Below, one piece after another: positions 8,084-23,971 of a stretch of 64,000 nucleotides of DNA (position 1 is the stretch's first letter; each line of letters opens with the position of its first letter). The stretch is from Minisyncoccia bacterium. GTDB taxonomy: Bacteria; Patescibacteriota; Minisyncoccia; Phycocordibacterales; GWA1-40-21. The translations under genes were made by a program, and so were the position numbers. Below the pieces are notes generated by a model. It made no database searches. It worked only from the letters and a program-made list of their open reading frames with translations, and had not been told where the DNA came from. Location of the stretch: contig JBAVTE010000012.1 of NCBI GenBank assembly GCA_049695975.1, forward strand, positions 71,665 to 135,664. Reading direction: 5' to 3'.

Positions 8084-8434
8084 ATGCTTGCCAAAAAATA
8101 TAGAATTTCTAGTGAGGATATAGGTAGAACCATAAAAAATGGTAAAAGTTTTCATGCAGATCACTTTTATGGTAAATTTGCTTTGAATAATACAAAAAAC
8201 TCAAGATTTGCTGTCGTTTCGTCTATTAAAATAGAAAAAACTTCGGTAGGCAGACACCTTTTAAAGAGAAGAATCTCTTCTACTATTGAGAGTTTTTTTA
8301 AAAAAAATCCTAAGTCGTTAGAAATACCATTTGATTTGATCATTTTTTCAAAAAAAGGGGCACCTCTTTTAAGTTTTTTTCAAATTTCTATCGAAGTCAG
8401 TCAGATTTTAGAGAATACTCATAAAAATTTTTAA
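8084..8434 (+). CDS. rnpA: RNase P protein component
   Basis: 116 aa basic protein directly after rpmH, in the rpmH-rnpA-yidC-jag order. Confidence 0.8.
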   Translation: MLAKKYRISSEDIGRTIKNGKSFHADHFYGKFALNNTKNSRFAVVSSIKIEKTSVGRHLLKRRISSTIESFFKKNPKSLEIPFDLIIFSKKGAPLLSFFQISIEVSQILENTHKNF

Positions 8435-8470
8435 GGTTGAATATTCGCGTATTTCTGTTAGTATTACAGA

Positions 8471-9229
8471 ATGATTCATTTTATTTTTCAAAATTTTTTT
8501 TATATTCCACTTTATAACTTCATGGTTGCTATTTTAGGGGCTTTTCCATATTTTTCTATTGGATTTGCCATCATAGTTCTGACTTTTATTGTACGAATAA
8601 TCCTTTTTCCTCTTTCAAAGAAGGCTGTGAGAACCCAGATTGAAATGAAGATTATTGAACCAGAAATAGAAGAAATAAAGAATAAATATAAAGATAATAA
8701 GCAGGAGCAGTCTATGCAAATTATGAAGCTTTATAAAGAAAAAGGAGTCAATCCATTTTCTAGCATTTTTCTAATTCTTCTTCAGCTTCCTGTGCTTATT
8801 GCATTATATTATGTTTTTTTAAGTGGTGGTTTACCAAAAATAGATTATTCTCTTCTTTACCCTTTTGTTTATCCTCCTGTGACAATCAATATGTTTTTTC
8901 TTGGTATAGATACGATGCAAAAAAGCATTGTTTTCGCAATTTTGGCTGGTGTGACACAGTTCTGGCAGATACAGGTAGCTACACCTATGAAAAGCACCGT
9001 CAAAAAAGACCCTTCTGCAAAGAGAAGTATGGGCGATGACTTGGCAAAAAGTATGAATTTTCAAATGAAATTCATAATGCCTATCTTTATGTTCTTCATC
9101 GCATGGAGCTTCCCTGTCGTTGTATCTATCTATCTTATTACTACAAACCTCTTTTCAGTCGCGCAGGAGTTTTATATGAGAGGAAAGATGGCGAGTGAGA
9201 AGGCAGGTGTGCAAAAGGTTAATAATTAA
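8471..9229 (+). CDS. yidC: membrane protein insertase YidC/Oxa1 family
   Basis: Multi-TM protein with the conserved YidC core (…LPVLIALYYVF…), in the conserved operon context. Confidence 0.85.
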   Translation: MIHFIFQNFFYIPLYNFMVAILGAFPYFSIGFAIIVLTFIVRIILFPLSKKAVRTQIEMKIIEPEIEEIKNKYKDNKQEQSMQIMKLYKEKGVNPFSSIFLILLQLPVLIALYYVFLSGGLPKIDYSLLYPFVYPPVTINMFFLGIDTMQKSIVFAILAGVTQFWQIQVATPMKSTVKKDPSAKRSMGDDLAKSMNFQMKFIMPIFMFFIAWSFPVVVSIYLITTNLFSVAQEFYMRGKMASEKAGVQKVNN

Positions 9230-9235
9230 AATAAA

Positions 9236-9703
9236 ATGAAAAACGAAGATATAAAAAACATAATAGCAGAGATGATTCAAAAGATGGAGGTTAGCTTCGA
9301 TTCTATTGATGAAGTATTTGATGAAATAACAAAGAAAAATATTTTTGTAATAAGAACAAAGGACTCTGGGCTTCTGATCGGTGAAAATGGTGAAACATTT
9401 AATGCTTTTTTCATGCTTGTCAAAAGGATGGTTGCAAAGAAGGCTCAAAATGAGGAGATACTGTCTTCATTTGCGATTGATATCAATGATTATCACTCAA
9501 GTAAGGTAATAAAACTCAAAAATCAAGCAAATATCTTTGCAAATAGGGCTCGAGATATGAAAGTTAATATAGAAATGGATCCTATGTCTTCATATGAAAG
9601 ACTCATTATACACTCAGCACTCAGTGATCAGCCTAATATTAAGACAGAATCTATAGGAGAAGGTTTGTCTAGGAGGATTGTTATAAAATATATAAAGAGC
9701 TAG
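9236..9703 (+). CDS. jag: Jag/KhpB-like R3H-domain RNA-binding protein
   Basis: C-terminal R3H-like motif (…ERLIIHSALSD…) and its position after yidC. Confidence 0.7.
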   Translation: MKNEDIKNIIAEMIQKMEVSFDSIDEVFDEITKKNIFVIRTKDSGLLIGENGETFNAFFMLVKRMVAKKAQNEEILSSFAIDINDYHSSKVIKLKNQANIFANRARDMKVNIEMDPMSSYERLIIHSALSDQPNIKTESIGEGLSRRIVIKYIKS

Positions 9704-9831: not shown

Positions 9832-11082
9832 TTAGTTTCCTGCTGGAGAAATTTTAAACTCCCAGAGAGACAAATCTTTTTTGTTTATAAAAATAATGTA
9901 ATTATCTTTTGCGCTTATGACAGGATCGCTTACATCTACGCTTTCATTATCTTTTGTCTGATATAAAAGGGTGGTGGTTTTGTCTGCTGTATTTATTTCC
10001 CAAAAATCATCAGAGAAAGACGCAGAACCGTTGTACCATGCATCGGGGAAGAGACCACTTGGCATGCTTTTAGGTACTGCACAATATACAATATTTGAGC
10101 TCATTTTGCTCCACACACATTTATCAGCAAATGTGCTCAGAGATAAAGAGGAGTCAATATCTTTCTCGATATCCATATATCCAAGTGTTGGTCTTCCTCT
10201 TACATTTTTAGAAAACAAAACACTGTTTCCGTTGTTCCCTACTAGAGTTGTAAGACCATATATATCTCCTGTGACTTGTTCCAAACTTCCGTCTGAAGTA
10301 TTTAAGTCAAATAAAAATCCTTGCATATAGTAACTAGGTTTCGTCAACAAAGACACGGTATTGTCCCCTACCCAACTTGCACTCCAATTTTTTAATTCGG
10401 AAGTAAAGACTTGTTTTTTGCTCGTTCCATCTATATTTCCTGTAAAACCTGCAGAACCACTATCGGTTTCTAATAAGTAAAATATTTTAGAAGAATTTTT
10501 ATTTATTGCAATCGTTTTAATATTTTCTGGTAAGAAGGACCCAGAAATAATTCCCGCAAATTCATTTGAGGTAGAAGCATAGAGAGTGATTTTTGCGGAA
10601 TAAGTTGCTATTTTTTCAGTTTTATCTTTGATGTATCTTAGTAAGACATTTGTACCTGTTTTATCAAAGAGTGCCTCATATATTTTAGGTATAGTGGTGT
10701 TGGTAATTCTTGTAATTTGGCTTGAACCAAAGCTTATTTCATGAATATTGCCATTACTTCTTTCTACCAGTCGTACTTTTTCATTTGGATACACTCCAAA
10801 TATTGTAGCCCCTGCTACTGGTTCCTGGAAAATTTGTTTTAGTCCCAATTCGTTTGCTGTATTGTTTGTGGTAGTGCTAGTAGGTGTACTCGTATCTCCA
10901 AAATTGGCGGTATTTGTATTGGTTTTGTCTACCGAAGTATCACCAAAACCATTTTGTGTCTGGGTTGTATTGTCTACAGGTACATTAGTGTTTGTATTTG
11001 TCCTAAAATAAAAGAAAAGGAATGTTATTAAAATAACGATTGTTATTCCAAGTATTAAAATGATTGCTTTTTTCTTTTCCAT
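9832..11082 (-). CDS. membrane-anchored secreted hypothetical protein (T4SS-like cluster, distal gene)
   Basis: N-terminal TM helix, a T/N-rich linker, then a ~300-aa globular domain. Last gene of the minus-strand cluster. Confidence 0.4.
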   Translation of the reverse strand: MEKKKAIILILGITIVILITFLFFYFRTNTNTNVPVDNTTQTQNGFGDTSVDKTNTNTANFGDTSTPTSTTTNNTANELGLKQIFQEPVAGATIFGVYPNEKVRLVERSNGNIHEISFGSSQITRITNTTIPKIYEALFDKTGTNVLLRYIKDKTEKIATYSAKITLYASTSNEFAGIISGSFLPENIKTIAINKNSSKIFYLLETDSGSAGFTGNIDGTSKKQVFTSELKNWSASWVGDNTVSLLTKPSYYMQGFLFDLNTSDGSLEQVTGDIYGLTTLVGNNGNSVLFSKNVRGRPTLGYMDIEKDIDSSLSLSTFADKCVWSKMSSNIVYCAVPKSMPSGLFPDAWYNGSASFSDDFWEINTADKTTTLLYQTKDNESVDVSDPVISAKDNYIIFINKKDLSLWEFKISPAGN

Positions 11083-11092
11083 TTTATTTTAT

Positions 11093-11536
11093 TTATTGAA
11101 ACCACCCTGGAATTTGAAGAATATCAGGATTGACTGTATATAGGATGAGATATGAGGCAAGGACGAGCAGTAGACCCCAGAGAGCATTAGTTATTTTACT
11201 TTTAGCATCACTCTTTCCATCAAAGGCCTCGGTAGTCATATATTCTACTCCTCCCCAAGCGATCATAAGGACGGCGAGCACGGCAGCAGCAGCAACTCCG
11301 AAGTTATAAACAGAAGCCAAAAATTTTCCCAAATTTCCACTCGTATCTATTTTTTCATTTATCATCGCTTTTTTTTCTAGCGGAACATATTTCATTGTGC
11401 CATCATTATTGTCAGATGGTATAAAGTGTGTGTTTTGGGGTTGAGCATCTTCTGCATTACATAAAGTAAAAGGTATTGCTGTACAAAGTATGAAGAAGGA
11501 AACTATTAATAATGCTATTTTTTTATTATTTTTCAT
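11093..11536 (-). CDS. pilin-like protein, VirB2/TrbC-like (signal peptide plus two hydrophobic helices)
   Basis: 147 aa with an N-terminal signal or TM segment and a C-terminal pair of hydrophobic helices (…AAAAVLAVLMIAWGG… and …LWGLLLVLASYLILY…), typical of T4SS pilins. Overlaps the upstream gene by 11 nt. Confidence 0.45.
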   Translation of the reverse strand: MKNNKKIALLIVSFFILCTAIPFTLCNAEDAQPQNTHFIPSDNNDGTMKYVPLEKKAMINEKIDTSGNLGKFLASVYNFGVAAAAVLAVLMIAWGGVEYMTTEAFDGKSDAKSKITNALWGLLLVLASYLILYTVNPDILQIPGWFQ

Positions 11537-12527
11537 AATTTAATGTAAAACCAAATCTACCAAACTGAAACATTCTATCACGATTTTCTACATTTATGCT
11601 GATGTTTGCACTCCCCGATCCAGATGTCTCGACTTGTTTTAAAATAATAGTATTTTTCTTTCCTGCTGTAGTATAACTTTGTCCATTTACTGACCAAGTC
11701 ATATTTAATCTTGATGAATCTGGTTCTTTTACATCAAAATAAAAAGGAAAAGCTATAATATCCATTTCTTCTTTTGAACCAATATTTATCACACCTGTAA
11801 GGGCTTTATTGAAAAATATTCCATATAATGGATTGTCTTCATACATTAAAATTTTGGGACTTGTTGGAGAAATAGAAATAATTTTCTCTGCTGTAACTTT
11901 TCTGTTGTCATCTTGTACTGTGACATCTATGTCTGTATCATCAGAGATACCATTACCGCTGAAAACAAAAGTATTTTTTCCTCGGCCTGAAGCATCTTCA
12001 TCAACTACCCCGTTTTTCATCCAAGTATAAGTAAGGCTTTTATCTGGTATCTTTGTTCCGTCAATATAAATTTCTGGTATCGCCAGCGCTTTGACAGTTC
12101 CCTGTTTTGCAAAAAGAGGCGAACCTTTGTAAAAATTGGGTGTGTATGACTGTGGCTCAAAAATTATATTTATGTCTCTCGGTTGGATGACTTGTTCGAG
12201 TACATTTGTGGAATTTATAACAGCTTTTACTGTCGTGGATTGTGATTTATTTGATAAATCAAAAGAAAAGCTGGTCAAACCCACCCCTTCTTTTTTCAAA
12301 GTTCCATCCACAAACCATGATATTTGCTCGGTATTTAAATTTTGATAAATGTTTTTGAGAGAAGCTGTGATGGTATCTCTAAATTTTGGATTTATGGGCG
12401 ATATAGTCATACTGGATCCAGAGATTGCCTGTGAATTTGGGGTTTGAGCAAAAGAAAAAATAGGACATATTGATATGGCTGTGAGAATAATAATTAATTT
12501 TAGAGATGTAAGAAAGCTTCTATTCAT
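11526..12527 (-). CDS. secreted hypothetical protein (signal peptide, 333 aa)
   Basis: Cleavable signal peptide and a beta-rich composition. Sits inside the T4SS-like cluster. Confidence 0.4.
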   Translation of the reverse strand: MNRSFLTSLKLIIILTAISICPIFSFAQTPNSQAISGSSMTISPINPKFRDTITASLKNIYQNLNTEQISWFVDGTLKKEGVGLTSFSFDLSNKSQSTTVKAVINSTNVLEQVIQPRDINIIFEPQSYTPNFYKGSPLFAKQGTVKALAIPEIYIDGTKIPDKSLTYTWMKNGVVDEDASGRGKNTFVFSGNGISDDTDIDVTVQDDNRKVTAEKIISISPTSPKILMYEDNPLYGIFFNKALTGVINIGSKEEMDIIAFPFYFDVKEPDSSRLNMTWSVNGQSYTTAGKKNTIILKQVETSGSGSANISINVENRDRMFQFGRFGFTLNYEK

Positions 12528-12548
12528 TTGTTATATTATAACACAAAA

Positions 12549-14387
12549 TTAACCCATCAACCCATTTGCAATACCATATTCTTGTTTTGCTTTTCTGATA
12601 GCGAGGAGCTGTGAAGGATCGGAAGTGATGATTTGATCTTCGGTATAAGATGCATAGATTTTGAGAGCGACATGCTTTGTTCCTACAAAGAAAATACCCT
12701 CTCCTACATCTGATTCAAGCAGTAAAAACTTTTCTTCATCAGTGAGGTTAAATATTTTTTGCAAATTGTCCACAGCCGTCGGGGATTGTTTGAGGAGAAT
12801 TTGTATTGAGGAGTTTGTCACAATAGGTTGCCCATAAGGTGAACGCAAGAAGTCATCGACATCTTGAGTAATAGTAGCAAGACCCAGGAAGTATTTTCTG
12901 CCTCTTTTTGCCATGCCAAAAAGGAATGATGCTGTGTCATCCGATTTCATCATCCACCATGCCTCATCTATCACAAGCAATCTCTTTTTGAGTTGTTTAC
13001 GGACGGCATTCCAAATGTGGTGTGTAATGAGATACATAGCTACTGGCTTGAGTTCATCTTCCATATCTCTAATGGAAAAAACTACGAATTTGTAGTCTAT
13101 ATCAATGTTTGTGGCTTTGTTTAGAAATCCTGCCCATGTTCCTCTCGTATATTTTGAAAGTTTTTGTACAAGTGACTCGGCCCCTTTCATACCAGAAAGA
13201 ACGAGCTCAAAGTCCGAGAGAAGTGGCGCCTCAACATTTGAGAAATCAGAGTCTGGGGTGATATCTTTCAGTGCATATGTCTCCAAAATTGCTTTATCTA
13301 TGATCGCATCTTCTTCTTGTGAAAGTCCGCCAAACATTAGGCGGAAAAGTCCGACAAGGTTTATAATATTTGTTCTCAAAACATCTGCTGATGATTCATC
13401 TTCACGAGCGATAGGAAGATCAAATGGATTCAAGTGGGCATCAGAGTTTAAAGAAATACTAAACGACTTTCCACCAGCTGCCTCGGCGAGGAATTCATAT
13501 TCTTTTTCTGGGTCTATCACAATGACATCTATATCAAACATCAAACTTCGCAATATTTCTAGCTTTGTACAGTATGATTTACCAGAACCAGACTTTGCAA
13601 AAGTGATGGAGTTGTAGTTTTCTAGAGAAAATCTGTCAAAGATTACTAAGCTGGAATTGTGCCTGTTGATACCATAAAGAATACCTTTGTCGGATGTAAG
13701 GTCGAAAGAAATAAAAGGAAAAATACTCGATAATGGGGATGAGTTGAGCTTGGAATGTATTTCAAGGAGGTCTGTGCCTGTTGGTAAAATACTTTTATAA
13801 CCCTGCTCTTGTTGAAAAAGTGCTGGTTTTACATAAATAAGGCGGGATTCAAGGATTGATTTGATTTCCGATTCAAATTTGTTTAGTTCTTCTTCATTGT
13901 CTGCATAAATAGTAATGTAAAGACCAACATCAAAAAGCTTTTCTTGTGCTTGCTGGAGATTGTCGCGAAGCCCTTCGAGGTCTTGGTATGCAGTATCTAG
14001 TACTGGGTCACGCACCAGACCCTTCCTTTCCCTGTCATTTATTTGGCTTTGTACTTCGGCCACTTTTTTCTGAAATTGTCGCAGTATTTTTACTGTGTCG
14101 AGCGGATGAATAAAAATTGAAACATTAAAAACTCTATCAAGGTTGATGATTGGGGCAAACCAGCTTTCAGTGAGAAACCTAGGATAGGAAATAACAAAAA
14201 ATGTTCGAGCTATTTTTTCTCCAAGATTTATTTCTTTCGGCGTAATTTTGAGCGCCGATGGTGCAATGATGTCTTGTAATTCTAGAACCCCAGCCTCATA
14301 TATTTCTTGGGGAAGAAAAGATGTCAGTTCATCTTTTTTGTCTTCTTTTTTGCCGAATAAATTATTTAAAAATGACATATTATGCAT
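12549..14387 (-). CDS. VirB4/TrbE/CagE-family conjugal transfer ATPase, C-terminal ATPase portion
   Basis: Walker A (FAKSGSGKSY) and Walker B (LLVIDEAWWMM) in the spacing characteristic of VirB4. At 612 aa it is too short for a full-length VirB4. Confidence 0.8.
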   Translation of the reverse strand: MHNMSFLNNLFGKKEDKKDELTSFLPQEIYEAGVLELQDIIAPSALKITPKEINLGEKIARTFFVISYPRFLTESWFAPIINLDRVFNVSIFIHPLDTVKILRQFQKKVAEVQSQINDRERKGLVRDPVLDTAYQDLEGLRDNLQQAQEKLFDVGLYITIYADNEEELNKFESEIKSILESRLIYVKPALFQQEQGYKSILPTGTDLLEIHSKLNSSPLSSIFPFISFDLTSDKGILYGINRHNSSLVIFDRFSLENYNSITFAKSGSGKSYCTKLEILRSLMFDIDVIVIDPEKEYEFLAEAAGGKSFSISLNSDAHLNPFDLPIAREDESSADVLRTNIINLVGLFRLMFGGLSQEEDAIIDKAILETYALKDITPDSDFSNVEAPLLSDFELVLSGMKGAESLVQKLSKYTRGTWAGFLNKATNIDIDYKFVVFSIRDMEDELKPVAMYLITHHIWNAVRKQLKKRLLVIDEAWWMMKSDDTASFLFGMAKRGRKYFLGLATITQDVDDFLRSPYGQPIVTNSSIQILLKQSPTAVDNLQKIFNLTDEEKFLLLESDVGEGIFFVGTKHVALKIYASYTEDQIITSDPSQLLAIRKAKQEYGIANGLMG

Positions 14388-15024
14388 TTACGATGGGTTT
14401 TTCTAAATCCCCAGGATTAAATATCTTGTAGAACAATTCAATAATCTCATCTGTACCAAGGGCGATGCTCTTCAGTCCACATCTGATAAGTCCACCTTGT
14501 ATTACTCCGATCCTCTGCTCAAGCTGGGTTCTGTTTTCAAGGAAAGAGTCATTTTTATCTGTGGTTTTTGTTTTTTCTTCTTTTTTGCTGTTAAAAAAGT
14601 TACTAGCAATACTACCGGCATTGTTCGTCGTCAATACTTGTGAAAATGGTATTACTACAAAGAAAGTTTTGGTCATAATGTTGGATTGCTCCACAAAAGC
14701 TTTGATGAAAGCAATATATTCTTTGATTTGTATTTTCATAAGGTCACTAAGCTCGGCTTTGTATCTTTCTTCGAGCTGAGCTAGATACGGTCGGATATCG
14801 AGTTGTCTTGATTGGATGGAAATTTGAACAGAAAAATCAAGAGAATTCAGAAAATTTTGAAATTGATATATGACAGCCTCCTGCTCTTCTCCGGATTTTA
14901 AAGCAAAGTTGACAGATGAAACCATAATAACCGCTCTCATTGAGCCATCTTTTAAAATCATCACTCCATCTCGGATTTCTTTGATGGGTACGAAATCTTG
15001 TGTTGCTTTTGCAATTACCGGCAT
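14380..15024 (-). CDS. probable VirB4 N-terminal domain encoded as a separate ORF (split VirB4)
   Basis: 214 aa ORF overlapping the ATPase ORF by 8 nt. Together 214+612 is about 826 aa, the normal VirB4 length. Confidence 0.45.
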   Translation of the reverse strand: MPVIAKATQDFVPIKEIRDGVMILKDGSMRAVIMVSSVNFALKSGEEQEAVIYQFQNFLNSLDFSVQISIQSRQLDIRPYLAQLEERYKAELSDLMKIQIKEYIAFIKAFVEQSNIMTKTFFVVIPFSQVLTTNNAGSIASNFFNSKKEEKTKTTDKNDSFLENRTQLEQRIGVIQGGLIRCGLKSIALGTDEIIELFYKIFNPGDLEKPIVNA

Positions 15025-15054
15025 AACTATATTATATATTAAAAGACCAAAAAA

Positions 15055-15513
15055 CTATAATCTACTTTCTCCTATTATCCTGCCTAGAGGTTTTTCTTCT
15101 TTTGACACTGGGTTCAATGACTCTTTTATATTTAAACTCCATGTCAAATCTTTTAATTTACTGTCGGAAAGCTTTGGCATATATATAGACTTTTGGGTAT
15201 TATTTTCCGAAATGGTATGTTCTGGTTTTTTATCTGCCTTTTTCCAAATATATAGCCGACTGTTTGTAAAATAATTGAATGCATACTGAATCATAAATAT
15301 AAGAGGTCTGTTGTTTACAGAATAAAAAGCGAGGAGTAAGCCGGCTATTGCCACAGCAAGAGCGATGGGGATGGATAATATTTTGAAAGGAATAAAATAA
15401 TATACCGAAAAAGCAAGACCCACACCTCCACCGATATAAATAAACTGTTTGAAGGTCAATGGTCCAAATATTTTGTCTTCTATATCAATAAATTGTGGTG
15501 TTTGAAATTGCAT
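15055..15513 (-). CDS. PrgI/VirB3-like small two-TM protein
   Basis: 152 aa with the motif FIDIEDKIFGPLTFKQFIYIGGG followed by two TM helices, located immediately upstream of VirB4 as in Gram-positive T4SS. Confidence 0.5.
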   Translation of the reverse strand: MQFQTPQFIDIEDKIFGPLTFKQFIYIGGGVGLAFSVYYFIPFKILSIPIALAVAIAGLLLAFYSVNNRPLIFMIQYAFNYFTNSRLYIWKKADKKPEHTISENNTQKSIYMPKLSDSKLKDLTWSLNIKESLNPVSKEEKPLGRIIGESRL

Positions 15514-15514
15514 T

Positions 15515-16255
15515 TTATTCTATTGGTTCTCTATAGGGGTCTTTTTTGGGCTCTGGTTTCAGAGGGATTTTACTGGTTTCCTCTATCACTACCCTTTCTT
15601 TCGGCATACTAGTCATGCCCCCCATCTTCTCCACTATTACATCCTCTACTTTTTTCTCTGGATTGTCTGAAAGTGAATTTGTTGCAAGAAGTATGGGTTT
15701 CGGATTTGGTGAAATTTGTTTTGTCTCAGAAATATAATTGTTCATAGGTGTTTGTATTTCTACTCCCTCACCCATATCTTCTATCTCTTTTGTTTTTTCC
15801 CCACTATTTGAATTGAGTGAGCTAAAATAAATAGATCCTTCTTTTTTGTGTATTTCGCTTGGATTTTCTATGCCCTCCAATATCGTCGCCCTTGTCATTT
15901 CTGGCTCTTCCAACAAATTTTCCTCGCCCGTTTCTTCATTCATCTTCTGAAGTGACTCTCTTATTTTTTTGAAAATCAAATCATCTACATCCATAGCTAT
16001 TGTATTTGCGACTCTTTCATCTACCTCCATATTTGTCATCAGATTTTTCTTGTAGTCAGCAAGTGATTCAAGCCCCACCATGACGAGCGTCGTCTCGGTC
16101 TCAAGCTTCCCTGCTTGGTCTATCAGTAATTTATTTTTCTTTGTGACCTGATCCAGCGCCGTGCTGTAATCCACCGAAAAAACCGCATCTTTCACATCCT
16201 GTGGAAGCGTCTTCATTTGCTCATCTATTGCATTTTGTAATTGTGTGTCATTCAT
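15515..16255 (-). CDS. hypothetical acidic protein, paralog of the adjacent ORF 16264-16737
   Basis: The N-terminal ~110 aa align with the neighbouring ORF (…QMKTLPQDVKDAVFSVDY…LVMVGLESLADY… versus …QMKKLPQDVREFILSVDY…FVLLGLEPISDY…). Confidence 0.45.
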   Translation of the reverse strand: MNDTQLQNAIDEQMKTLPQDVKDAVFSVDYSTALDQVTKKNKLLIDQAGKLETETTLVMVGLESLADYKKNLMTNMEVDERVANTIAMDVDDLIFKKIRESLQKMNEETGEENLLEEPEMTRATILEGIENPSEIHKKEGSIYFSSLNSNSGEKTKEIEDMGEGVEIQTPMNNYISETKQISPNPKPILLATNSLSDNPEKKVEDVIVEKMGGMTSMPKERVVIEETSKIPLKPEPKKDPYREPIE

Positions 16256-16263
16256 AATTTATA

Positions 16264-16737
16264 TTATTTTGTTGCTATCTCAGCCAATCTTTCCTTTATA
16301 CTTTTTCCACCTACTTTAATCCTTATCGCTGTTACTATTTCGCTGTTTGGCTTTTGTAACATATAATTATTTTTTACCAATGTATTTGAAATATCACTAA
16401 CCGATAACATGTCCTCATCCATTTTCTGTAAGGATTGAAGAATCCTCCTAAAAATATTTTCGTTTACATCCGTCGCTATTTCTTGGGCCTGAATTAAAAA
16501 TATATCGAGATTTTTTTCAAGATTAGCAACATAGTCAGAAATAGGTTCAAGACCAAGCAAAACAAAAGAGGTTTCCATTTCAAGTTTTTCAGTCAATTCA
16601 GCAGATAACTTTTGTCTTTCAGATATCTCTCCAAGTTTTTTTCCATAATCAACAGAAAGGATAAATTCCCGTACATCTTGTGGAAGTTTTTTCATCTGTT
16701 CTGCTACTATTTCTTGTGTCGTTTTTTCTTTTTGCAT
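16264..16737 (-). CDS. hypothetical protein, tandem paralog of 15515-16255
   Basis: Same alignment as 15515-16255 above. Confidence 0.45.
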   Translation of the reverse strand: MQKEKTTQEIVAEQMKKLPQDVREFILSVDYGKKLGEISERQKLSAELTEKLEMETSFVLLGLEPISDYVANLEKNLDIFLIQAQEIATDVNENIFRRILQSLQKMDEDMLSVSDISNTLVKNNYMLQKPNSEIVTAIRIKVGGKSIKERLAEIATK

Positions 16738-16749
16738 ATTTAATATTTT

Positions 16750-19122
16750 TTATTTTGATTCGTGTTGAGTTTCCATACCTTCTGCTAATTTAGCTGCTCT
16801 TGCCATAGAGGTCCATTTTCCAGTCCTACCCTCTCTAACTGAATCTGCATAATTTCTAGCTTTATTTACTACATCTAGTTGTGCTTTTTCAGGGGCAGTT
16901 ATTACAGATGGATCATTTTCTACCTTCTTTTCCGCCTTTGTTTTTATGGCTTTCATTTGATCATCTAGGGCAGCTATTTCACCAGCATATTTCTTCTTAA
17001 GCTCCTCTTGAATTTCCTTTACTTTTTTATCTTTTGTTCTAGCTGCGTCGTTGTAAATTCTCTTTGCTTCAGAGAGTGCTTTTTTGTGCTCAGCTTTTTG
17101 TACAGTGGTACCCGTAGCCATAATACTAGCTGATCTTGTTTCCAGATCCTCTTTTTCTGTCTTTGCATCTGCAAAAGCAGCCTGTTCGTTTACAAGATCT
17201 TTATGATTGTCTCTGACTCTTAGGTAGTCAGTTTTCTGATTTCTTAAATTATTGTAATTAACGTCGCTACCACCGGTATGATAACCAGTAACTGGGTCTA
17301 TGAAGACTGTGCTACTAATACCAGTAGCAGGGTTTACGACAGTCATACCAGCACCATCTAATTGACCTTTTACTACGGTATCTCTAGCCTGTAGAGCAGT
17401 ATTTGCCGCCAATCTTTGCTTACCAGTAACTGATTTATCAAGTTTATTATATATTTCATTTTCTCTTTCCTGTTGTGCTTGTCTAGCTCCTGCAAAACCT
17501 GTTTCTTTACCATAAATTCCACTGGTTTTACCCATATCCATATTGATACCTGTTTGTTTGCTAAGAACACCAGCTACTTTACGTACAGACTCTACATTTC
17601 TAGCATCATATGTGGACTTTGAAGCTTTTTCATATGTTGCCAATTGCATCCTAGCCCTAATACTTCCACTCGCTGCGTCTGCTCTTAATTTCTCACCTCG
17701 GGCACCTTGAAGTTGGCTGTTTGCAAGTCTGCCAATTACTTGCCTACCAGCCAAGGCCACTCCACCCGTTGCAACCCCAAGTCCAAATCCTACTACTTTG
17801 GATCCCAAGCCGTTTACCATTTGCCCCACACTTCCACTGGACTTTTTGGTTATTTCCACAGTTTTCAATATAAGGAAAATTATAATTGAGAAGTTTAGAA
17901 GCATTGCAAAACTAGAAGCAGCACCTGTAAATTCGCCATTACCACTTATCATTGTTGATATGTCAGTTGTACCAAAACCTTTAGCAATTACTAGAGTTAT
18001 AATTATTAAAAGCAAGAATATAGGAATAATAAAAAGCTGTGCGGTAAATTCTTTCCACCACCAGTCTGGAGAGAGACTTTCGAGAGCTTTTACTTTTGAA
18101 AGCATTGTTTTTACACCCGGTCCTAGAAATCCTAATGGAGAAAGAGCTAATAATAAGATTAATGTAACTATTCTTCCTATAAATAAAATACATACAGAGA
18201 AAAAAGCAAAAGCTGCAATAGAATAAATTGCAATTTGTAGTACAAAAAGTATTATTATCCCCAGAATACCAACTGGCTCTGTATTATTGTTTGAACTTAT
18301 TTTATCCTTTCCTTCGCCAAAAAGCCTTGTCCCTTGTGTTGATTGTGGTATACCCAAACCATTAGCAAGACCAGCTGTCAGAGATGATTTTGCTTCTCCA
18401 TTTACCGAGACAACTTGATTGTATAAGGCAGTTGAGACAGTATTGCTTGCATCTATTAAAACTCTCGTAAAGAACATACTAAAGTTTATCAAAAGTCCGG
18501 ATATAACAACTCCGATAATAATTTGTTTTGTAGTATTTCCAGCCTTTCCAATTATTTGAGAAATGCCAGCCCATAAAAGCACAAAAACAAAAAATACATT
18601 AAAAATATCTCTTACAATTGTCCAAACTTTAAATATTCCAGCTCCTATATTTGGATCATCATAATTAAAACCAATAGCTATTCCAAGTGTCCAATCCAAT
18701 AGCTTGGCAGAAATCACCAGCATCATTCCAGCGATAGCTCTTACGACTAAAAGTATATAAGCAATCCCCTTGAGGATAATGCCTAAAAGACCAGAGGCAA
18801 TAAATGCCATGGGGTCTTTCCAAAAACTTATTTGCTTTTCATTCGCCGCCACCCCCGCGTCATATTTTTCTTTAGTTATGATTTGATTCCTATTATCATA
18901 ATAGGTTATAACACCAGTTGTCTTGTTTGTCTCTGTCTGGTATCCATTAGGGGCAGAATAGTATGATATATCACCAGCTGCGACCTCGTTTTTTTGTGTG
19001 GAAATAATTAAAGAATCATTTGGGTTCACAATAAATTTTATCGGCGTCAAAAAAACCCCTAACACTATAGAAAGTGCAACAAAAAACTTAAATGTATTTG
19101 AAGTAAAAAATCTTTTTTTCAT
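16750..19122 (-). CDS. VirB6/TrbL-like polytopic membrane protein with C-terminal coiled-coil tail (790 aa)
   Basis: Signal/TM segment followed by at least 8 predicted TM helices and a charged C-terminal tail. Position and architecture fit a T4SS inner-membrane channel component. Confidence 0.45.
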   Translation of the reverse strand: MKKRFFTSNTFKFFVALSIVLGVFLTPIKFIVNPNDSLIISTQKNEVAAGDISYYSAPNGYQTETNKTTGVITYYDNRNQIITKEKYDAGVAANEKQISFWKDPMAFIASGLLGIILKGIAYILLVVRAIAGMMLVISAKLLDWTLGIAIGFNYDDPNIGAGIFKVWTIVRDIFNVFFVFVLLWAGISQIIGKAGNTTKQIIIGVVISGLLINFSMFFTRVLIDASNTVSTALYNQVVSVNGEAKSSLTAGLANGLGIPQSTQGTRLFGEGKDKISSNNNTEPVGILGIIILFVLQIAIYSIAAFAFFSVCILFIGRIVTLILLLALSPLGFLGPGVKTMLSKVKALESLSPDWWWKEFTAQLFIIPIFLLLIIITLVIAKGFGTTDISTMISGNGEFTGAASSFAMLLNFSIIIFLILKTVEITKKSSGSVGQMVNGLGSKVVGFGLGVATGGVALAGRQVIGRLANSQLQGARGEKLRADAASGSIRARMQLATYEKASKSTYDARNVESVRKVAGVLSKQTGINMDMGKTSGIYGKETGFAGARQAQQERENEIYNKLDKSVTGKQRLAANTALQARDTVVKGQLDGAGMTVVNPATGISSTVFIDPVTGYHTGGSDVNYNNLRNQKTDYLRVRDNHKDLVNEQAAFADAKTEKEDLETRSASIMATGTTVQKAEHKKALSEAKRIYNDAARTKDKKVKEIQEELKKKYAGEIAALDDQMKAIKTKAEKKVENDPSVITAPEKAQLDVVNKARNYADSVREGRTGKWTSMARAAKLAEGMETQHESK

Positions 19123-19202
19123 TTTACTTATTTTACCTCTTTAATTATACCAAATGTAACTCCTTTTTCCCAATCGTCTCTGACTAAAAACTCTTTTGTC
19201 TT

Positions 19203-20879
19203 TTATATTGACTGTAAATATTCTGAAAATGTAGGAATTGTAATGGGGCAATTCTCAGTGGAATAATGTGGATATCTGTTTGCTATGTCATAGGCCTGTA
19301 CATAGATAGATTCAGCCAGACTTACATCCGATGCCTGCCCCTCTGTATGGAAGGGTGGTGCCCCAAGGTCATTTATTTGCGTGCTAGCACTTAGTGTATT
19401 AAGTCTCGAGTCTATTTCTTTAACATTTGTATTACTATCTATAATATTTTTATTTAGTTCCTTAAAAATATCCGTTGTGGTTATAAGGTCTAAAACATTT
19501 GTTTGTATATCTTTAGCCCTTTGGGTGTTGGTGGTAGCGTCGCTACTATCTTGATAATTACAACTCATTGCTTCTGTGAAGGTGCTTCTTATGGATTTAC
19601 TTCCAATATTTAAATAATTTAATATATTATTTTGTATATATTGATAGTCAGTTTCTATATTTCTTTGATTTTTGAGTGCGGTTCTAGTACCTGATAGCGG
19701 ATCGGACGGGTTGGGGTTATTTGGGTTGTTGTTTGTTGAATTTCCCCCGTTTGATGAGTTATTGTAAGAATTTTGAACCGCTTGCTGAGCTTGTAGGTCT
19801 TTGATGGTTTGTTCGTTATCATAGTATTGTTGATCCTTGTTATTACCAGTAAGAGAACTCATCGTTGATTTTAATTGTTCTGTTGCTAATTCCGTTAATA
19901 AATCTACAGATGCAGCGGCTATAATATCGAGCCCATCTCCTATCGCTATTTGCATTTCGGTCATTCTTTGTCCAGAGGTACTTCCGAAAAATAATCTGGA
20001 GGCAATCAAACTCCCTGGACTTTTAACTTTACAAACCGTTTCTACACTTGTGCCTTCTATTGTGTCAGTATTATTATCGCTACCACTTTCTTCATCCATC
20101 GTGTTTTTGGTTGTAACAGGTGGTTTATAGAATGGACTTCCTACATAAGGCTGACCTTGACTTACAAATTGTTTTTGTGTATTGCCAGTTACTGGGTCTA
20201 TGGAAATGTTGTAGGTTGTATCTGTGCATTCTCGTAAAGTTAAGGAACCGCTACCTAGTGACTGTTCTTTGTCAACTTGTCCTTGTTTGTCTTGTCCTAT
20301 TAAGCTGAGTTGACTATCAAACACTAGGAATGCTCCTTCAGGAGTGGCATTTGGGTCGGTGACCATAGTGAGGAAAGAATTCCAACCACCACCACCTATG
20401 AAATCTCCATTTGCAAAATTGGTGTAGGCATCTTTTCCATTTTGTAACGCTCCAGATAGGGTACAGTCTACTGTTTGATAAAATTTTCTGTGTTGCAATG
20501 CCAGAGAAAGTTTTAGTTGTAGTTGAAATGGTTTACACAAAAAACTGAAAGCCGGATTATTATAAAGAAAGTCACCTATAGCAACATCTGCGACATTTGT
20601 AGCGAATCTCTCTGGATCATTAAGAAAAGAAGGATTTCCTTGGAACCCACTTGAAATCCAATCCGCAATACTTTGGCTCATAAAAATAATCGTTCTTTTT
20701 GCGGCGGCTTTAGCAAAAAATACCAAATCAGATTTTGTTTTTTCCCAAACACTAGCTACTACAGTTACTGGAACGGCCTCTGCTTTTTGGGGTAATAACA
20801 AAAAAGAAAAATTCAAAACTATCATTACCGTTATCAGAATTCCGGATAGCACTTTTTTATTTAAATTGTTTTTTAGCAT
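19203..20879 (-). CDS. secreted hypothetical protein with N/Q/T/P-rich low-complexity region (558 aa)
   Basis: Signal peptide, and a PNNPNP-type linker similar to the one in ORF 24145-27174. Confidence 0.4.
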   Translation of the reverse strand: MLKNNLNKKVLSGILITVMIVLNFSFLLLPQKAEAVPVTVVASVWEKTKSDLVFFAKAAAKRTIIFMSQSIADWISSGFQGNPSFLNDPERFATNVADVAIGDFLYNNPAFSFLCKPFQLQLKLSLALQHRKFYQTVDCTLSGALQNGKDAYTNFANGDFIGGGGWNSFLTMVTDPNATPEGAFLVFDSQLSLIGQDKQGQVDKEQSLGSGSLTLRECTDTTYNISIDPVTGNTQKQFVSQGQPYVGSPFYKPPVTTKNTMDEESGSDNNTDTIEGTSVETVCKVKSPGSLIASRLFFGSTSGQRMTEMQIAIGDGLDIIAAASVDLLTELATEQLKSTMSSLTGNNKDQQYYDNEQTIKDLQAQQAVQNSYNNSSNGGNSTNNNPNNPNPSDPLSGTRTALKNQRNIETDYQYIQNNILNYLNIGSKSIRSTFTEAMSCNYQDSSDATTNTQRAKDIQTNVLDLITTTDIFKELNKNIIDSNTNVKEIDSRLNTLSASTQINDLGAPPFHTEGQASDVSLAESIYVQAYDIANRYPHYSTENCPITIPTFSEYLQSI

Positions 20880-20911
20880 TTTGTCTTTTTGATTATATCA
20901 AATATTTAATC

Positions 20912-21895
20912 TTAGCTACTTTTATTCGATATGTATAAATTGATATTACTGATTGATCTACTAAAATCTTGTATAACTTTATCGTATTTTTTTGCGGTAG
21001 TTAGGGATATTATAGGATTCGTATCTACTGCTTTTAGATCTTTTGCAAGTAATGACAAACTATATATAGAATTTGCAAGGAGCAAATGACTATCTGCTAT
21101 TTCTGCTGGAGTTTCTGTATTGATTATTTCTTCCGATGTTTTTTGATATAAGGTAATAATTTTGTCTATGCCTGAGAGAATTGCCGGGTCTTCTTTTGTC
21201 AAAAAAGTATTAGCAATTGAAATTTCCTTAAATACATTATTTTTTATTTCATTGCTATTTATAATTTTATTGATTTTTATTGAATAGTTTGAGATATCTT
21301 TTGCTGTCGGATTGTCAATTATTTTTAAATCCGTACTTGTATATTTTTGCTCAAGTGGCTTGTCTGGAATATTTGCAACAGAATTTGCTACGAGTTCATT
21401 TATTTGGTCAGTTGTTAGTTTTGAGCCATCAGCTGGCTGTACGGCAATATAATCTGAAAAAAGTGATCTTGAAAATCTTTGAGTTTCGTTTAAACTATTC
21501 CATTCTTCCTCATCTTTTGTATTGTTGGCTACGATGGTCGGGTCAATTTTATCATTTGGTTCTTTGTTTTTTCCTGCAGTATTTGGAACGAGCGGATTTC
21601 TGCCTTGAGTGATTTCATCCCCATCGAGCGTTCCATCACCATCTGTATCAGGATTCCTCGGATCAGTTTTCCAGAGTGTTTCTTCCCAATCTACTAAATT
21701 GTCCTTGTCCGTATCAATTGTTTTGATATCTTTTATATTTTGAATAACAATTTGATTATTATTTAAAAATATAGATGTTTCTTTTTCATTAGTTCCTATA
21801 AATTTTATAACAAAAATAATAATGACGAGTGCAATCGCTGTAGACAAAGAAATAACAAATTTTCTAGAAGGGAGATATGTTTTATCAACTCTCAT
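20912..21895 (-). CDS. membrane-anchored protein with Asp-rich calcium-binding (thrombospondin-type-3/dockerin-like) repeat
   Basis: N-terminal TM helix and a DTDGDGTLDGDEITQGRNP motif. First gene of the minus-strand cluster. Confidence 0.4.
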   Translation of the reverse strand: MRVDKTYLPSRKFVISLSTAIALVIIIFVIKFIGTNEKETSIFLNNNQIVIQNIKDIKTIDTDKDNLVDWEETLWKTDPRNPDTDGDGTLDGDEITQGRNPLVPNTAGKNKEPNDKIDPTIVANNTKDEEEWNSLNETQRFSRSLFSDYIAVQPADGSKLTTDQINELVANSVANIPDKPLEQKYTSTDLKIIDNPTAKDISNYSIKINKIINSNEIKNNVFKEISIANTFLTKEDPAILSGIDKIITLYQKTSEEIINTETPAEIADSHLLLANSIYSLSLLAKDLKAVDTNPIISLTTAKKYDKVIQDFSRSISNINLYISNKSS

Positions 21896-21988
21896 CTTTT
21901 AATTATATCAATAACACTACTATCTTGCAATTTTTTCTATGATATCTGATATAATATAGAAATAGTAATAAATTTATTAATTTTTTTA

Positions 21989-23971
21989 ATGTTTGATCAT
22001 ATGAAAAAATATTTTTTGGCCCTCGCTATCATCTTTTCTTTAATCTATAGTGTACCTTTTTTTGCAAAAGCTGTTGAAAAAGAGCTGAGTAATTTGGAGG
22101 TTGCAAACTATATTAAAGCTTTGATTGCTGTAGGTGCAATAACAGAAGATAAAGTTGGTGCAGCAAATATAATCCTTAAACAATTAACTGATACCACAGG
22201 AGGTAGTGGTGGTGCTACATCTATTACCCTTCTCTCTCCGAATAGCGGGGGAAAATTAATGAGAGGGCAGGTTCAAAAAATAAAATGGCAGGATAATCGC
22301 AGATTTATAACTACCAATTACTATGATATTTATTTGGACGAGCTTTGTCTTTATGAAAGTGGCTCTTGTGAGTCAAAAATGATAGCTTCAAAAGTGACGG
22401 CAGGTTTATATGATTGGGCTGTGGATGAATATGATGGTCTATATAAAATAAAAATTTGCGACCACTCTTCTGATACTAATAAACAGTGTAGTCCAAGTAG
22501 CAATTTCTTCTATATTTCTTCCCCTACACCATCTTCTCATTCTGCGAGTGCATTTGTCTCTTGTGTTGCCAATCCTTCAAGAGTTCCTATTGGAGGTTCC
22601 GTTAGCTGGTCTGCTGTAATTGACGGAGGTGCGGGTGGATATAGCTATACATGGTCAGACAATGAAGGATCATCAAATATTGTATCTGGTACTGCAGGAC
22701 AAACGGTTACGAAAGTTTACAATACGGCCGGTATAAAGACTGCTACTTTGACGGTCAATGATTCTGCGGGCAATAATGCCTCTGTTAAATGTAATACCAG
22801 TGTTTACGATCCGATACAATCTCAGGAAAATTTTGCTCCTCTTCAGGTTTCGTGTTTTTCTGATGTGACCACTGTCTACCTTGGTCCAAAACATCTCCCG
22901 CTTGCAAAAGGCGGAAATATATTTTTTACAGCCAAGACTTCTGGGGGAAATGGAGGGTATAATTATTATTGGTCTGATACAGATGGGGATGAAGGATCTG
23001 CTGGTTTTAATTTATTAAAGGTATACACAACTCCAGGAAAGAAAACCATGGTAGTAAAAGTCACTTCTGGCACAGAAACAGTGACAAAAAGTTGTAATTT
23101 TAATGTTGTAGATATACCACCTCCACCACTTATTGTTTCCTGTTCTGGAACTATTTCACCATCTTCTAATAAAACAGTCATATGGGGAGCGAACGCCTCG
23201 GGAGGGAGCAAAACATCAGAAGGTAGAGATAATTATGGCTATCTTTGGTGGTTACCAAATGCAGAAAATGCTGAGATAACGACAGATAAGTTTATTTCTA
23301 AAACTTATACAACTACCGGCAATGTAAATGCAACATTAAAAGTTTATTCAGGTGATCAGGTTGGCAACGCTAGCTGTTCTGTAGATATGGATTCGGTGTC
23401 GACACCATTGTCAGCCACTTGCTCAGCAAGTCCTAGCACCATAAACCTAGGGCAGTCCATTACTTGGACAGCGCATCCTGTGGGAGGTGCTGGAGAATAT
23501 TCATATTCTTGGGGAGATAGTGAAGGGTCCATTGGATTAGCTGGACAGTCTGTTTCTAGAACCTACAATTCAGTTGGAGAAAAAGGAGCAGTAGTTCTAA
23601 TGGCATCAACAAAGGGACCTGTAGGAGGAAATTTAGCAATAGCGACTTGTTCTGCTCTTGTAAAGGATGTAGATATTCCAGATCCAAATGCTACTTCTCC
23701 ATTATCCGCAACTTGTTCGCTTGTTGAAAATGAAGTAAGAAAGACATCGGATATTAGGAATAGTCCAAGATATTTAAATTTGGTGGCATACCCTAAAGGT
23801 GGTACGGGAAATTATACTTATAAGTGGATAGAGGAAGGACATGGTGAGATAGGAAACACTAGTAAATCTGTTCCAATTGAAAAACCTGCTTCTGGCGTTA
23901 GAGATTTCATTTTAGAGGTTAACGACGGAACTCAGTCGACTGAAGCTACCTGTTCTACTCCAGTCGAATAA
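21989..23971 (+). CDS. secreted protein with ~6 PKD/Ig-like repeats
   Basis: Signal peptide, then ~90-aa repeats of the pattern SC.A.PS…W…GG.G.Y.Y.W.D.EG…G…VY.T.G.K…V.D..G…A.C. Confidence 0.5.
   Translation: MFDHMKKYFLALAIIFSLIYSVPFFAKAVEKELSNLEVANYIKALIAVGAITEDKVGAANIILKQLTDTTGGSGGATSITLLSPNSGGKLMRGQVQKIKWQDNRRFITTNYYDIYLDELCLYESGSCESKMIASKVTAGLYDWAVDEYDGLYKIKICDHSSDTNKQCSPSSNFFYISSPTPSSHSASAFVSCVANPSRVPIGGSVSWSAVIDGGAGGYSYTWSDNEGSSNIVSGTAGQTVTKVYNTAGIKTATLTVNDSAGNNASVKCNTSVYDPIQSQENFAPLQVSCFSDVTTVYLGPKHLPLAKGGNIFFTAKTSGGNGGYNYYWSDTDGDEGSAGFNLLKVYTTPGKKTMVVKVTSGTETVTKSCNFNVVDIPPPPLIVSCSGTISPSSNKTVIWGANASGGSKTSEGRDNYGYLWWLPNAENAEITTDKFISKTYTTTGNVNATLKVYSGDQVGNASCSVDMDSVSTPLSATCSASPSTINLGQSITWTAHPVGGAGEYSYSWGDSEGSIGLAGQSVSRTYNSVGEKGAVVLMASTKGPVGGNLAIATCSALVKDVDIPDPNATSPLSATCSLVENEVRKTSDIRNSPRYLNLVAYPKGGTGNYTYKWIEEGHGEIGNTSKSVPIEKPASGVRDFILEVNDGTQSTEATCSTPVE

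Follow-up and report, generated by a model that had tools for sequence, protein, structure and literature searches.

The region described here is a stretch of 64,000 nucleotides (nt) of contig JBAVTE010000012.1 (the window, to whose first letter all positions refer) from a metagenome-assembled genome (MAG) of the Minisyncoccia/Paceibacteria type. The Minisyncoccia are a class of the Minisyncoccota, a phylum also known as Patescibacteria or candidate phyla radiation (CPR). Positions 9832-21895 hold eleven minus-strand open reading frames (ORFs), here numbered g1 to g11 in transcription order, which most probably encode a type IV secretion system (T4SS) of the kind already described for Patescibacteria, and in which the ATPase VirB4 is divided between two genes (Table 1). 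An earlier inspection of the sequence alone (the original prediction) had proposed a T4SS-like cluster of eleven co-directional genes. This proposal held: all ORFs were confirmed with the coordinates and lengths first listed, and both PrgI and VirB4 scored above curated profile cut-offs, so that the profile searches suggested for the cluster returned T4SS matches beyond VirB4. The spacers between consecutive genes, from g1 to g11, measure 32, 80, 12, 8, 1, 30, -8, 21, -11 and 10 nt, and this tight spacing gives the cluster an operon-like layout. Hydrophobicity profiles agreed with the topologies predicted earlier, among them a single N-terminal hydrophobic anchor or signal in each of the proteins encoded by g1, g2, g9 and g11.

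Table 1. Genes of the cluster and features of its surroundings (positions in the window; the last column gives the number of the 80 related loci in which the gene was detected).
Feature	Position	Strand	Length (residues)	Assignment	Basis	Loci of 80
g1	20912..21895	-	327	N-terminally membrane-anchored protein with Asp-rich TSP3/EF-hand-like repeats; first gene	weak profiles	34
g2	19203..20879	-	558	secreted or anchored protein with N/T-rich region, fold unassigned	position directly upstream of the VirB6-like gene	56
g3	16750..19122	-	790	probable 'extended' VirB6/TrbL-like polytopic membrane protein	topology, orthologues, fold	63
g4	16264..16737	-	157	truncated duplicate of g5; helical N-domain kept, DPYREP absent	identity to g5	
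g5	15515..16255	-	246	soluble protein; helical N-domain, disordered linker, DPYREP C-terminus	family alignment	
g6	15055..15513	-	152	PrgI/VirB3-family membrane protein	Pfam PF12666	80
g7	14380..15024	-	214	stand-alone TrsD/'TraC-like' protein, homologous to VirB4 N-terminal part	NCBIfam profiles	80
g8	12549..14387	-	612 (probably 609)	VirB4 ATPase body, CD1110/MPF_FATA type	profiles, motifs	80
g9	11526..12527	-	333	secreted or anchored protein; Ig-like beta-sandwich repeats (probable)	weak profiles	76
g10	11093..11536	-	147	VirB2-like T4SS pilin, short form	PF18895 via orthologues, topology	68
g11	9832..11082	-	416	N-terminal anchor, T/N-rich linker, probable beta-propeller-like ectodomain; last gene	topology, weak profile	63
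promoter-like site	21902-21930	-		TTGCAA-17-TATAAT with TG, just upstream of g1	consensus match only	
second promoter-like site	19144-19173	-		in the 80-nt gap before g3	consensus match only	
dnaN	4977-6080			replication-origin neighbourhood		
dnaA	6301-7638			replication-origin neighbourhood		
rnpA-yidC-jag	8084-9703			divergent block between dnaA and the cluster		
PKD-domain protein	21989-23971	+	660	large, secreted; divergent upstream of the cluster		
PG_binding_1 protein	24145-27174	+	1009	secreted, with PNNPN-type repeats; divergent upstream of the cluster		
IS200-like Y1 transposase	27241-27933	+				
ksgA	27905-28708			on the other side of the cluster		
LysM + Peptidase_M23 protein	31069-32112	+		about 9 kb from the cluster		
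comM	32255-33814					
XerC/D-like tyrosine recombinase	39395-40387	-				

The product of g8 scored 369 bits against the NCBIfam model NF045971 (CD1110 VirB4-like, cut-off 325), covering positions 175-733 of 752, and 91.7 bits against P-loop_TraG of Pfam. In addition, it matched the VirB4 C-terminal domain of PDB entry 4AG5 with an E-value of 2.9e-37. For comparison with relatives, one genome per species was scanned, which yielded at least 477 relatives of the VirB4 body, and the best 80 loci (L001-L080) were compared gene by gene. VirB4 in these loci is 75-83% identical to g8, and the closest relatives belong to Taylor-, Zambryski-, Nomura- and Campbellbacteria-type genomes. The Walker A and Walker B motifs that had been reported for the 612-residue protein were located at residue 264 (AKSGSGKS) and residue 470 (LLVIDE), respectively, and both are kept in all 80 orthologues.

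The neighbouring g7 and g8 had been described as a VirB4 split into two ORFs with an 8-nt overlap and 826 residues in combination (214 plus 612), and a genuine two-subunit arrangement, a programmed frameshift and a pseudogenising frameshift had been offered as explanations. On the NCBIfam profiles, g7 covers positions 2-118 of 752 (CD1110), 103-252 of 894 (VirB4_plasma) and 7-162 of 792 (TIGR00929), and it is on these profiles that its homology to the VirB4 N-terminus is based; a single-sequence search of the PDB with the 214-residue protein returned nothing meaningful. The match of g7 to NF041427 (TrsD/TraD; E-value 3.5e-7, 30.3 bits against a cut-off of 200) suggests a protein that is homologous to this subfamily but lies outside it. 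PF26593 ('TraC-like') is assigned to g7 in the precomputed annotation of an identical protein (NCBI WCC74_01405, from a 'Minisyncoccia bacterium' MAG), whereas the local Pfam scan did not return this family. Because g7 and g8 cover non-overlapping parts of the VirB4 profiles and an hhalign comparison of their families showed no similarity (probability 0.2%), their products are complementary parts and not duplicates. The idea that TrsD duplicates an N-terminal region kept in g8 was also considered and is ruled out by the same hhalign value together with the complementary profile coordinates.

TrsD and VirB4 are encoded by separate genes in each of the 80 related loci. The spacer between them mostly ranges from -4 to some tens of nt, with few larger ones of up to several hundred nt, and the downstream virB4 occurs in all three relative frames, including in-frame cases with an intervening stop codon. 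Among 7,982 homologues of g7, the best 120 are all 179-221 residues long and 64-100% identical; many independent assemblies are represented among them, and PF26593 is their precomputed annotation. The junction in the window reads GCA-TAA-T-ATG, without a homopolymer and without a slippery heptamer. The 8-nt overlap and the sum of 826 residues were reproduced with the longest ORF, which starts at the ATG at 14387, but the overlap arises only from this choice: the second ATG at 14378, which is also the start in the public gene call, lies 1 nt after the TrsD stop codon and yields a VirB4 of 609 residues. A TAA/TAG-N-ATG sequence is the commonest junction type in the relatives (13 of 80), and the canonical ATG at 14378 is likely the start of VirB4. 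An identical protein is present in an independent assembly (Logan SRR28012095), and a sequencing error does not explain the split.

The same gene pair is found beyond the 80 loci. On the Geobacillus plasmid pGspE55-1, a trio of PrgI, a TrsD-like protein and a DUF87-type VirB4 is encoded with overlapping stop and start codons, and in Southlakia epibionticum the genes SEML1_0010, SEML1_0009 and SEML1_0008 show the same order PrgI-TrsD-VirB4, with a virB4 of equal length (1,839 nt). The TrsD homologue of S. epibionticum is listed as essential (PMC12102498). Since the two genes are separate in all 80 loci, their spacing varies and all three frames occur, a conserved recoding site and an error are both excluded. 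The split is an ancient and conserved two-gene arrangement, found also on some Firmicutes plasmids, and not a frameshift, an error or a pseudogene. Of the three explanations offered originally, the two-gene arrangement stands. The split is no event in the present genome; it is the ancestral pair of TrsD and VirB4, which is catalogued as NF041427 TrsD/TraD and as PF26593 'TraC-like'. The two proteins are separately translated polypeptides, whose translation is probably coupled.

The gene preceding TrsD, g6, had been predicted to encode a PrgI/VirB3-like protein, and its product scored 37.0 bits against PF12666 (PrgI), above the gathering threshold of 27, and contains a hydrophobic hairpin at residues 33-68. 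In characterised systems, proteins of the PrgI/VirB3 family tether VirB4 to the membrane.

A VirB6-like role had been suggested for the product of g3. The topology is in line with this suggestion: residues 1-430 contain about seven hydrophobic segments, and the tail behind them, of about 360 residues, is hydrophilic, an arrangement that fits the 'extended VirB6' architecture described in a recent review (PMC12857230). Seven of 46 syntenic orthologues of g3 weakly match the Pfam family TrbL/VirB6 (best E-value 1.6e-4), and one homologue carries precomputed PF04610 and PF19590 annotations. An AlphaFold2 (AF2) model of residues 1-470 reached predicted local distance difference test (pLDDT) values of 85-93 in its core, and the top-probability Foldseek match of this model was TrwI/VirB6 of R388 (7o3v_G; probability 0.95, target TM score 0.41, E-value 0.1). 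A search of PDB sequences with the g3 family profile gave nothing significant, the tail producing low-complexity coiled-coil noise. Thus, g3 is probably, though not provenly, VirB6-like.

The VirB2-like pilin candidate encoded by g10 displays a signal peptide, a Y.PL.PLP motif and two hydrophobic helices, and 30 of 33 syntenic orthologues match PF18895 (T4SS_pilin) at an E-value of 0.01 or below (best 2.2e-11). The identification of the pilin and of the VirB6-like protein is thus supported by orthologues and, for the latter, by the fold match. The window contains one copy of the pilin gene only. In most relatives the pilin module continues into a C-terminal extension that is hypervariable and 100-300 residues long (e.g., L004:13258-14409 and L012:13401-14702), whereas a bare pilin of 106-147 residues without extension occurs in the window and in L001-L003, the three relatives closest to it. 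The published accounts that were compared describe pilin arrays but not pilin fusions.

The cluster is located in the neighbourhood of the replication origin, with dnaN, dnaA and the rnpA-yidC-jag block on one side and ksgA, uvrD and further housekeeping genes on the other. A tblastn search with all proteins of the window revealed that the order g1 to g11 is kept across the loci, followed by jag, yidC and rnpA on the opposite strand and by dnaA. For each gene of the cluster, dozens of independent genomes contain syntenic orthologues, and judged by these sequence comparisons the cluster lies far beyond chance. While PrgI, TrsD and VirB4 were detected in every locus, detection was lower for fast-evolving genes and for truncated contigs (Table 1). 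Median identity across the loci amounts to 78% for VirB4, 57% for TrsD, 50% for PrgI, 42% for the pilin and 26-32% for the other cluster genes, compared with 59% for DnaA and 44% for YidC, in loci that were chosen as the best VirB4 matches. VirB4 is therefore more conserved than DnaA or YidC, and for a secretion ATPase this constraint is unusually strong. The G+C content of the cluster (0.33-0.375) does not differ from that of its surroundings (about 0.35 window-wide). Because order and position are conserved, VirB4 exceeds DnaA in conservation and the G+C content is ordinary, the cluster appears to be a vertically inherited core machine and not a mobile element.

Six genes of the cluster encode proteins outside the recognisable T4SS families. 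Two of these, g4 and g5, had been predicted to be tandem paralogues, and with 44% identity over 102 residues (E-value 1e-26) they are true paralogues. Members of the g5 family consist of a helical N-domain of about 100 residues, a disordered linker and the motif DPYRE(P/E), located 2-4 residues from the C-terminus; DPYRE occurs exactly in 45 of 55 orthologue C-termini. The family comprises 3,161 cluster representatives at an E-value of 1e-3 or below, some with tandem N-domains, and its gene always lies between those for the VirB6-like protein and PrgI (orthologues in L002-L080). As most relatives carry a single copy, the tandem is a lineage-specific duplication of a single-copy family in which g4 lost the motif. 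No hydrophobic segment was found in g5, and profile searches returned no Pfam, NCBIfam or PDB relatives of the g4/g5 family, which by its sequence features represents an undescribed family of soluble cytoplasmic proteins.

The product of g2 lies at a position of note, since in classical systems the gene directly upstream of VirB6 encodes VirB5. Orthologues of g2 display conserved or invariant Cys, Trp and Gly columns; in 4 of 41, a carbohydrate-binding domain of the F5/8 type C (discoidin) kind is inserted, and one orthologue matches DUF4141. This single DUF4141 hit was followed as a lead to VirB5/TraI, but an NCBIfam scan of the g2 orthologues came back empty, leaving the VirB5 idea a positional one. 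PDB and NCBIfam profile searches retrieved no relatives of the g2 family, and an AF2 model of residues 1-347, built from a 16-sequence alignment, was unusable (pLDDT 42). A surface or adhesin role of g2 may be envisaged.

For g1, which had been described as a Ca-binding membrane-anchored protein, the N-terminal anchor was recovered, whereas Ca-binding, which remains putative, is suggested by sub-threshold matches to TSP3_bac and EF-hand (Pfam); CglD/MtsD of NCBIfam matched in part. Syntenic orthologues of g1 were detected in 34 of the 80 loci, and many of these are truncated. Weak Ig-like Pfam matches in g9 orthologues and a weak profile match of g9 to Hoc (E-value 0.0046) suggest that this protein probably consists of Ig-like beta-sandwich repeats and may be an envelope or surface component. 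The ectodomain of g11, to which no Pfam family was assigned, is probably beta-propeller-like, as hinted at by a weak TolB profile match (E-value 0.021). Searches of PDB sequences with the family profiles of g2, g5, g9 and g11 gave nothing significant, only weak hints being obtained for g9 and g11.

No relaxase and no type IV coupling protein (T4CP)/VirD4 was found among 30 other ORFs scanned in the 64-kb window (20 of the largest and 10 mid-sized ones), in agreement with the original prediction. The absence of both genes recalls the published T4SS of Patescibacteria. A survey of 3,035 Patescibacteria genomes detected VirB4 in 2,417 (about 80%), and most of these sequences fall into a single monophyletic clade within MPF_FATA (Quinonero-Coronel et al. 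2025, PMC12102498). According to this survey, the commonest partner is TrsD, which is remotely homologous to the N-terminus of VirB4 (2,272 homologues, 1,664 of them near virB4), and PrgI/VirB3, VirB6 and VirB2-like pilins of PF18895 are likewise encoded near virB4. Relaxases were found in only 103 genomes, T4CP homologues are mostly located far from virB4, the T4SS of Paceibacteria lies near dnaA, dnaN, rnpA and ksgA, and the phylogeny indicates vertical inheritance within classes (PMC12102498). The window shares with this clade a chromosomal virB4 with a stand-alone TrsD next to it, PrgI/VirB3, a large and probably VirB6-like protein, a VirB2-like pilin assigned to PF18895 through its orthologues, the lack of a relaxase or T4CP nearby and the location near dnaA, rnpA and ksgA. 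The affiliation of g8 with the clade is consistent with its 75-83% identity to more than 80 Paceibacteria-type species and with the MPF_FATA-type CD1110 model as the best curated match, both being measures of similarity and not a tree.

A homologous T4SS has been demonstrated to be essential for epibiotic growth of S. epibionticum; pilins were noted in its gene cluster, and recognisable coupling and relaxase proteins are lacking (Wang et al. 2023, PMC10633639). The cluster in the window resembles that system (SEML1_0006-0019) in the length of virB4, equal to that of SEML1_0008, and in the PrgI-TrsD-VirB4 order. It differs in containing a single pilin gene instead of an array of six divergent pilins, in that no NTF2/VirB8-like protein was detected in the cluster, and in belonging to the Minisyncoccia/Paceibacteria type and not to the Saccharimonadia. 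The original proposal of a fit to the minimal systems of Saccharibacteria/CPR episymbionts is correct with regard to the CPR system; the organism is no Saccharibacterium. For g1, g2, g5, g9 and g11, no described counterparts were found in the published accounts of Patescibacteria T4SSs that were compared. The locus reproduces the already published Patescibacteria T4SS in every major respect.

Among other known T4SSs, the MPF_FATA systems of pGO1 and pSK41 (TrsC-TrsD-TrsE) likewise divide the VirB4 function between a small TrsD-like protein and an ATPase of about 610-640 residues encoded after it, with a VirB3 of the PrgI/TrsC type in front. The Geobacillus plasmid shares the same trio with its stop/start overlap, and only this trio was detectable there; the other eight genes of the cluster had no match. 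Gram-positive conjugative T4SSs generally possess a relaxase and a T4CP and lack a VirB2 pilin (PMC12102498, PMC12857230), whereas the cluster in the window encodes a pilin and neither of the former. The Prg/Pcf system of Enterococcus pCF10 (PrgH-PrgI-PrgJ) resembles the window in the order VirB6-like, VirB3-like (PrgI family), VirB4 and in its monoderm architecture without VirB7, VirB9 and VirB10. However, PrgJ is a single polypeptide, unlike the bipartite VirB4 of the window, and pCF10 encodes the coupling protein PcfC, the relaxase PcfG, the hydrolase PrgK, the VirB8-like PrgL and the adhesin PrgB but no pilin. With 790 residues, g3 is 'extended' and closer in size to MPF_FA proteins than to the VirB6 proteins of MPF_FATA, which comprise about 300 residues (PMC12857230). 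Functional analogues of VirB2, VirB3, VirB4 and VirB6 are shared with the MPF_T systems, i.e. Agrobacterium VirB/VirD4 and R388 Trw, the latter providing in its stalk protein TrwI/VirB6 the top-probability fold match of the g3 model. In contrast to MPF_T systems, the cluster has a bipartite VirB4, lacks VirB7 to VirB11, VirD4 and an outer-membrane core complex, and contains no recognisable VirB5, g2 occupying the equivalent gene position without demonstrable homology.

Taken together, we consider it probable, at roughly 85%, that the region encodes a chromosomal, vertically inherited T4SS of the Patescibacteria clade, which stems from monoderm MPF_FATA and is present here in a Paceibacteria-type form of eleven genes at the origin. 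In such a machine, the VirB6-like protein, PrgI and TrsD/VirB4 would form a translocon in the cytoplasmic membrane, and the VirB4 ATPase would power extraction of the pilin and its polymerisation into a pilus or tube. The anchored or secreted products of g1, g2, g9 and g11 may build envelope-spanning and host-contact parts, and the soluble g5 with its C-terminal DPYREP peptide may act at the cytoplasmic face. As no relaxase or coupling protein is encoded nearby, and as has been proposed for the essential homologue in Saccharibacteria, the machine would most likely serve to exchange macromolecules with a host cell in a contact-dependent manner, by export of effectors and/or uptake of host material, and not conjugation. 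A 2025 review speculates that the T4SS and its pilus are a conduit for signals or for uptake from the host (PMC12857230), and in a 2026 preprint, tube-like structures that may be T4SS pili are reported from the interface of a cultivated Minisyncoccota parasite with its host.

Several points count against this interpretation. The copy of g3 in the window gave no profile match in the Pfam (including PF04610) or NCBIfam scans, and the E-value of 0.1 of its VirB6 fold match is non-significant. Similarly, the pilin of the window scored 21.7 bits against PF18895, below the cut-off of 26.6. The VirB6-like and pilin assignments made originally are therefore borne out by the orthologues together with fold or topology, but not by profile matches of the two proteins themselves. 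The choice of the 80 loci as best VirB4 matches introduces a slight bias towards VirB4 in the comparison with DnaA, and a T4CP or relaxase could be encoded elsewhere in the genome. Finally, the physical association of TrsD and VirB4 is a prediction from sequence, and the function of the T4SS as a whole has been deduced, the sequence being silent on cargo and direction.

Other explanations fit parts of these data. Two adjacent ORFs in different frames that jointly resemble one VirB4 could mean that a frameshift has disrupted the gene, be it through pseudogenising mutation or through an error of sequencing or assembly, and that the system is defective. This can practically be dismissed, as the two-gene state recurs in all 80 relatives with many different junction sequences and in thousands of independent homologues, of which all best matches listed have about 210 residues. 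In addition, both genes are highly conserved, the identical protein was recovered from the Logan assembly, no homopolymer is present at the junction, and Firmicutes plasmids and essential genes of S. epibionticum show the same split. Just as hard to maintain is a programmed ribosomal frameshift that fuses the ORFs into one VirB4 of 826 residues. It would be compatible with the 8-nt overlap under the longest-ORF choice, but not with the use of all three relative frames in the relatives, in part with an in-frame stop, nor with distances from -4 to several hundred nt, which no conserved recoding site would tolerate, and the junction offers a likely canonical start 1 nt past the stop instead of a slippery heptamer. 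Very unlikely as well is an integrated conjugative element, either with the cluster as its transfer module or as a decayed remnant. Monoderm conjugation machinery is the source of VirB4, PrgI and TrsD, and the window contains a tyrosine recombinase and an IS200-like transposase. However, the former lies 17 kb off among housekeeping genes and looks like XerC/D, neither of the two flanks the cluster, and no relaxase or T4CP was found among the ORFs of the window that were scanned. Furthermore, the same chromosomal position beside yidC, rnpA and dnaA in about 80 species, a G+C content like that of the surroundings, an ATPase more conserved than DnaA and the published phylogeny all speak for vertical inheritance.

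Two further readings accept the T4SS but assign it another task. Instead of an exporter or pilus-contact device, the machine could be an apparatus for import of DNA or nucleic acids; its analogues, the ComB T4SS of Helicobacter and the archaeal Ced system, equally do without relaxase and T4CP. The organisms lack nucleotide biosynthesis, comM is present in the window, g8 weakly matches CedB (E-value 3e-9, 36 bits), the T4SS genes of class ABY1 co-localise with comF, recG and radA (PMC12102498), and in the 2026 preprint host RNA is proposed as a food source and VirB4 is connected with the transfer of macromolecules. We nevertheless regard import as unlikely, since the CedB score is far below the cut-off of 700 and reflects generic VirB4 homology, Pfam and NCBIfam scans of the cluster proteins returned no ComB or Ced families beyond it, and the locus encodes no recognisable nucleic-acid-binding component. 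In S. epibionticum, competence depends on type IV pili and ComEC; cells survive deletion of comEC but not loss of the essential T4SS, so that transformation cannot be the sole reason for which the T4SS is required. Doubtful, too, is the proposal of a fixed 11-gene organelle next to the origin that would be essential as a conduit for taking up macromolecules of the host and would not be an exporter, with g5 as an adaptor or gate replacing the coupling protein and the variable pilin C-termini mediating host-specific contact. It builds on an ATPase that evolves more slowly than DnaA and on g1, g2, g5, g9 and g11, more than half of the conserved parts, which belong to no described family.

The T4SS of the Patescibacteria clade, the reading preferred here, has been known from papers of 2023-2025, and nothing fundamentally new emerges from the window. 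Its importance lies in a system found in about 80% of the surveyed CPR genomes, essential in the one genetically tractable lineage and free of a conjugation module. The value of the present locus is confirmatory: a 'split VirB4' of this type should be annotated as TrsD plus VirB4 and not as a pseudogene, and the order of all eleven genes is conserved next to the origin in Paceibacteria-type genomes. Minor additions are the DPYREP-tailed cytoplasmic family, the C-terminal extensions of the pilins in relatives and the conserved but unannotated envelope proteins, which could guide experiments on the mechanism.

With regard to the surroundings of the cluster, the two promoter-like sites listed in Table 1 rank highest among the minus-strand matches, and each is located in an intergenic gap; the total number of matches in promoter and terminator scans of the region was not above the expectation from shuffled sequence. 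An Rfam scan of the window returned tRNAs only. Two large secreted proteins of 660 and 1009 residues are encoded divergently upstream of g1, and 14 of 80 loci contain matches to the latter (39-62% identity) close to the cluster, mostly just upstream. Both are possible surface or cell-wall partners of the cluster. The LysM/M23 protein is a possible partner in cell-wall remodelling. An M23 peptidase is also encoded downstream of VirB4 in the Geobacillus plasmid locus (L081), and 'VirB1' hits near virB4 in Paceibacteria often contain M23/LysM domains (PMC12102498). Finally, many third-party annotation (TPA) MAGs titled 'uncultured Candidatus Saccharibacteria bacterium' (L004, L006-L008 and others) carry the Paceibacteria-type locus with a VirB4 76-80% identical to that of the window, and these titles are probably generic or mislabelled.

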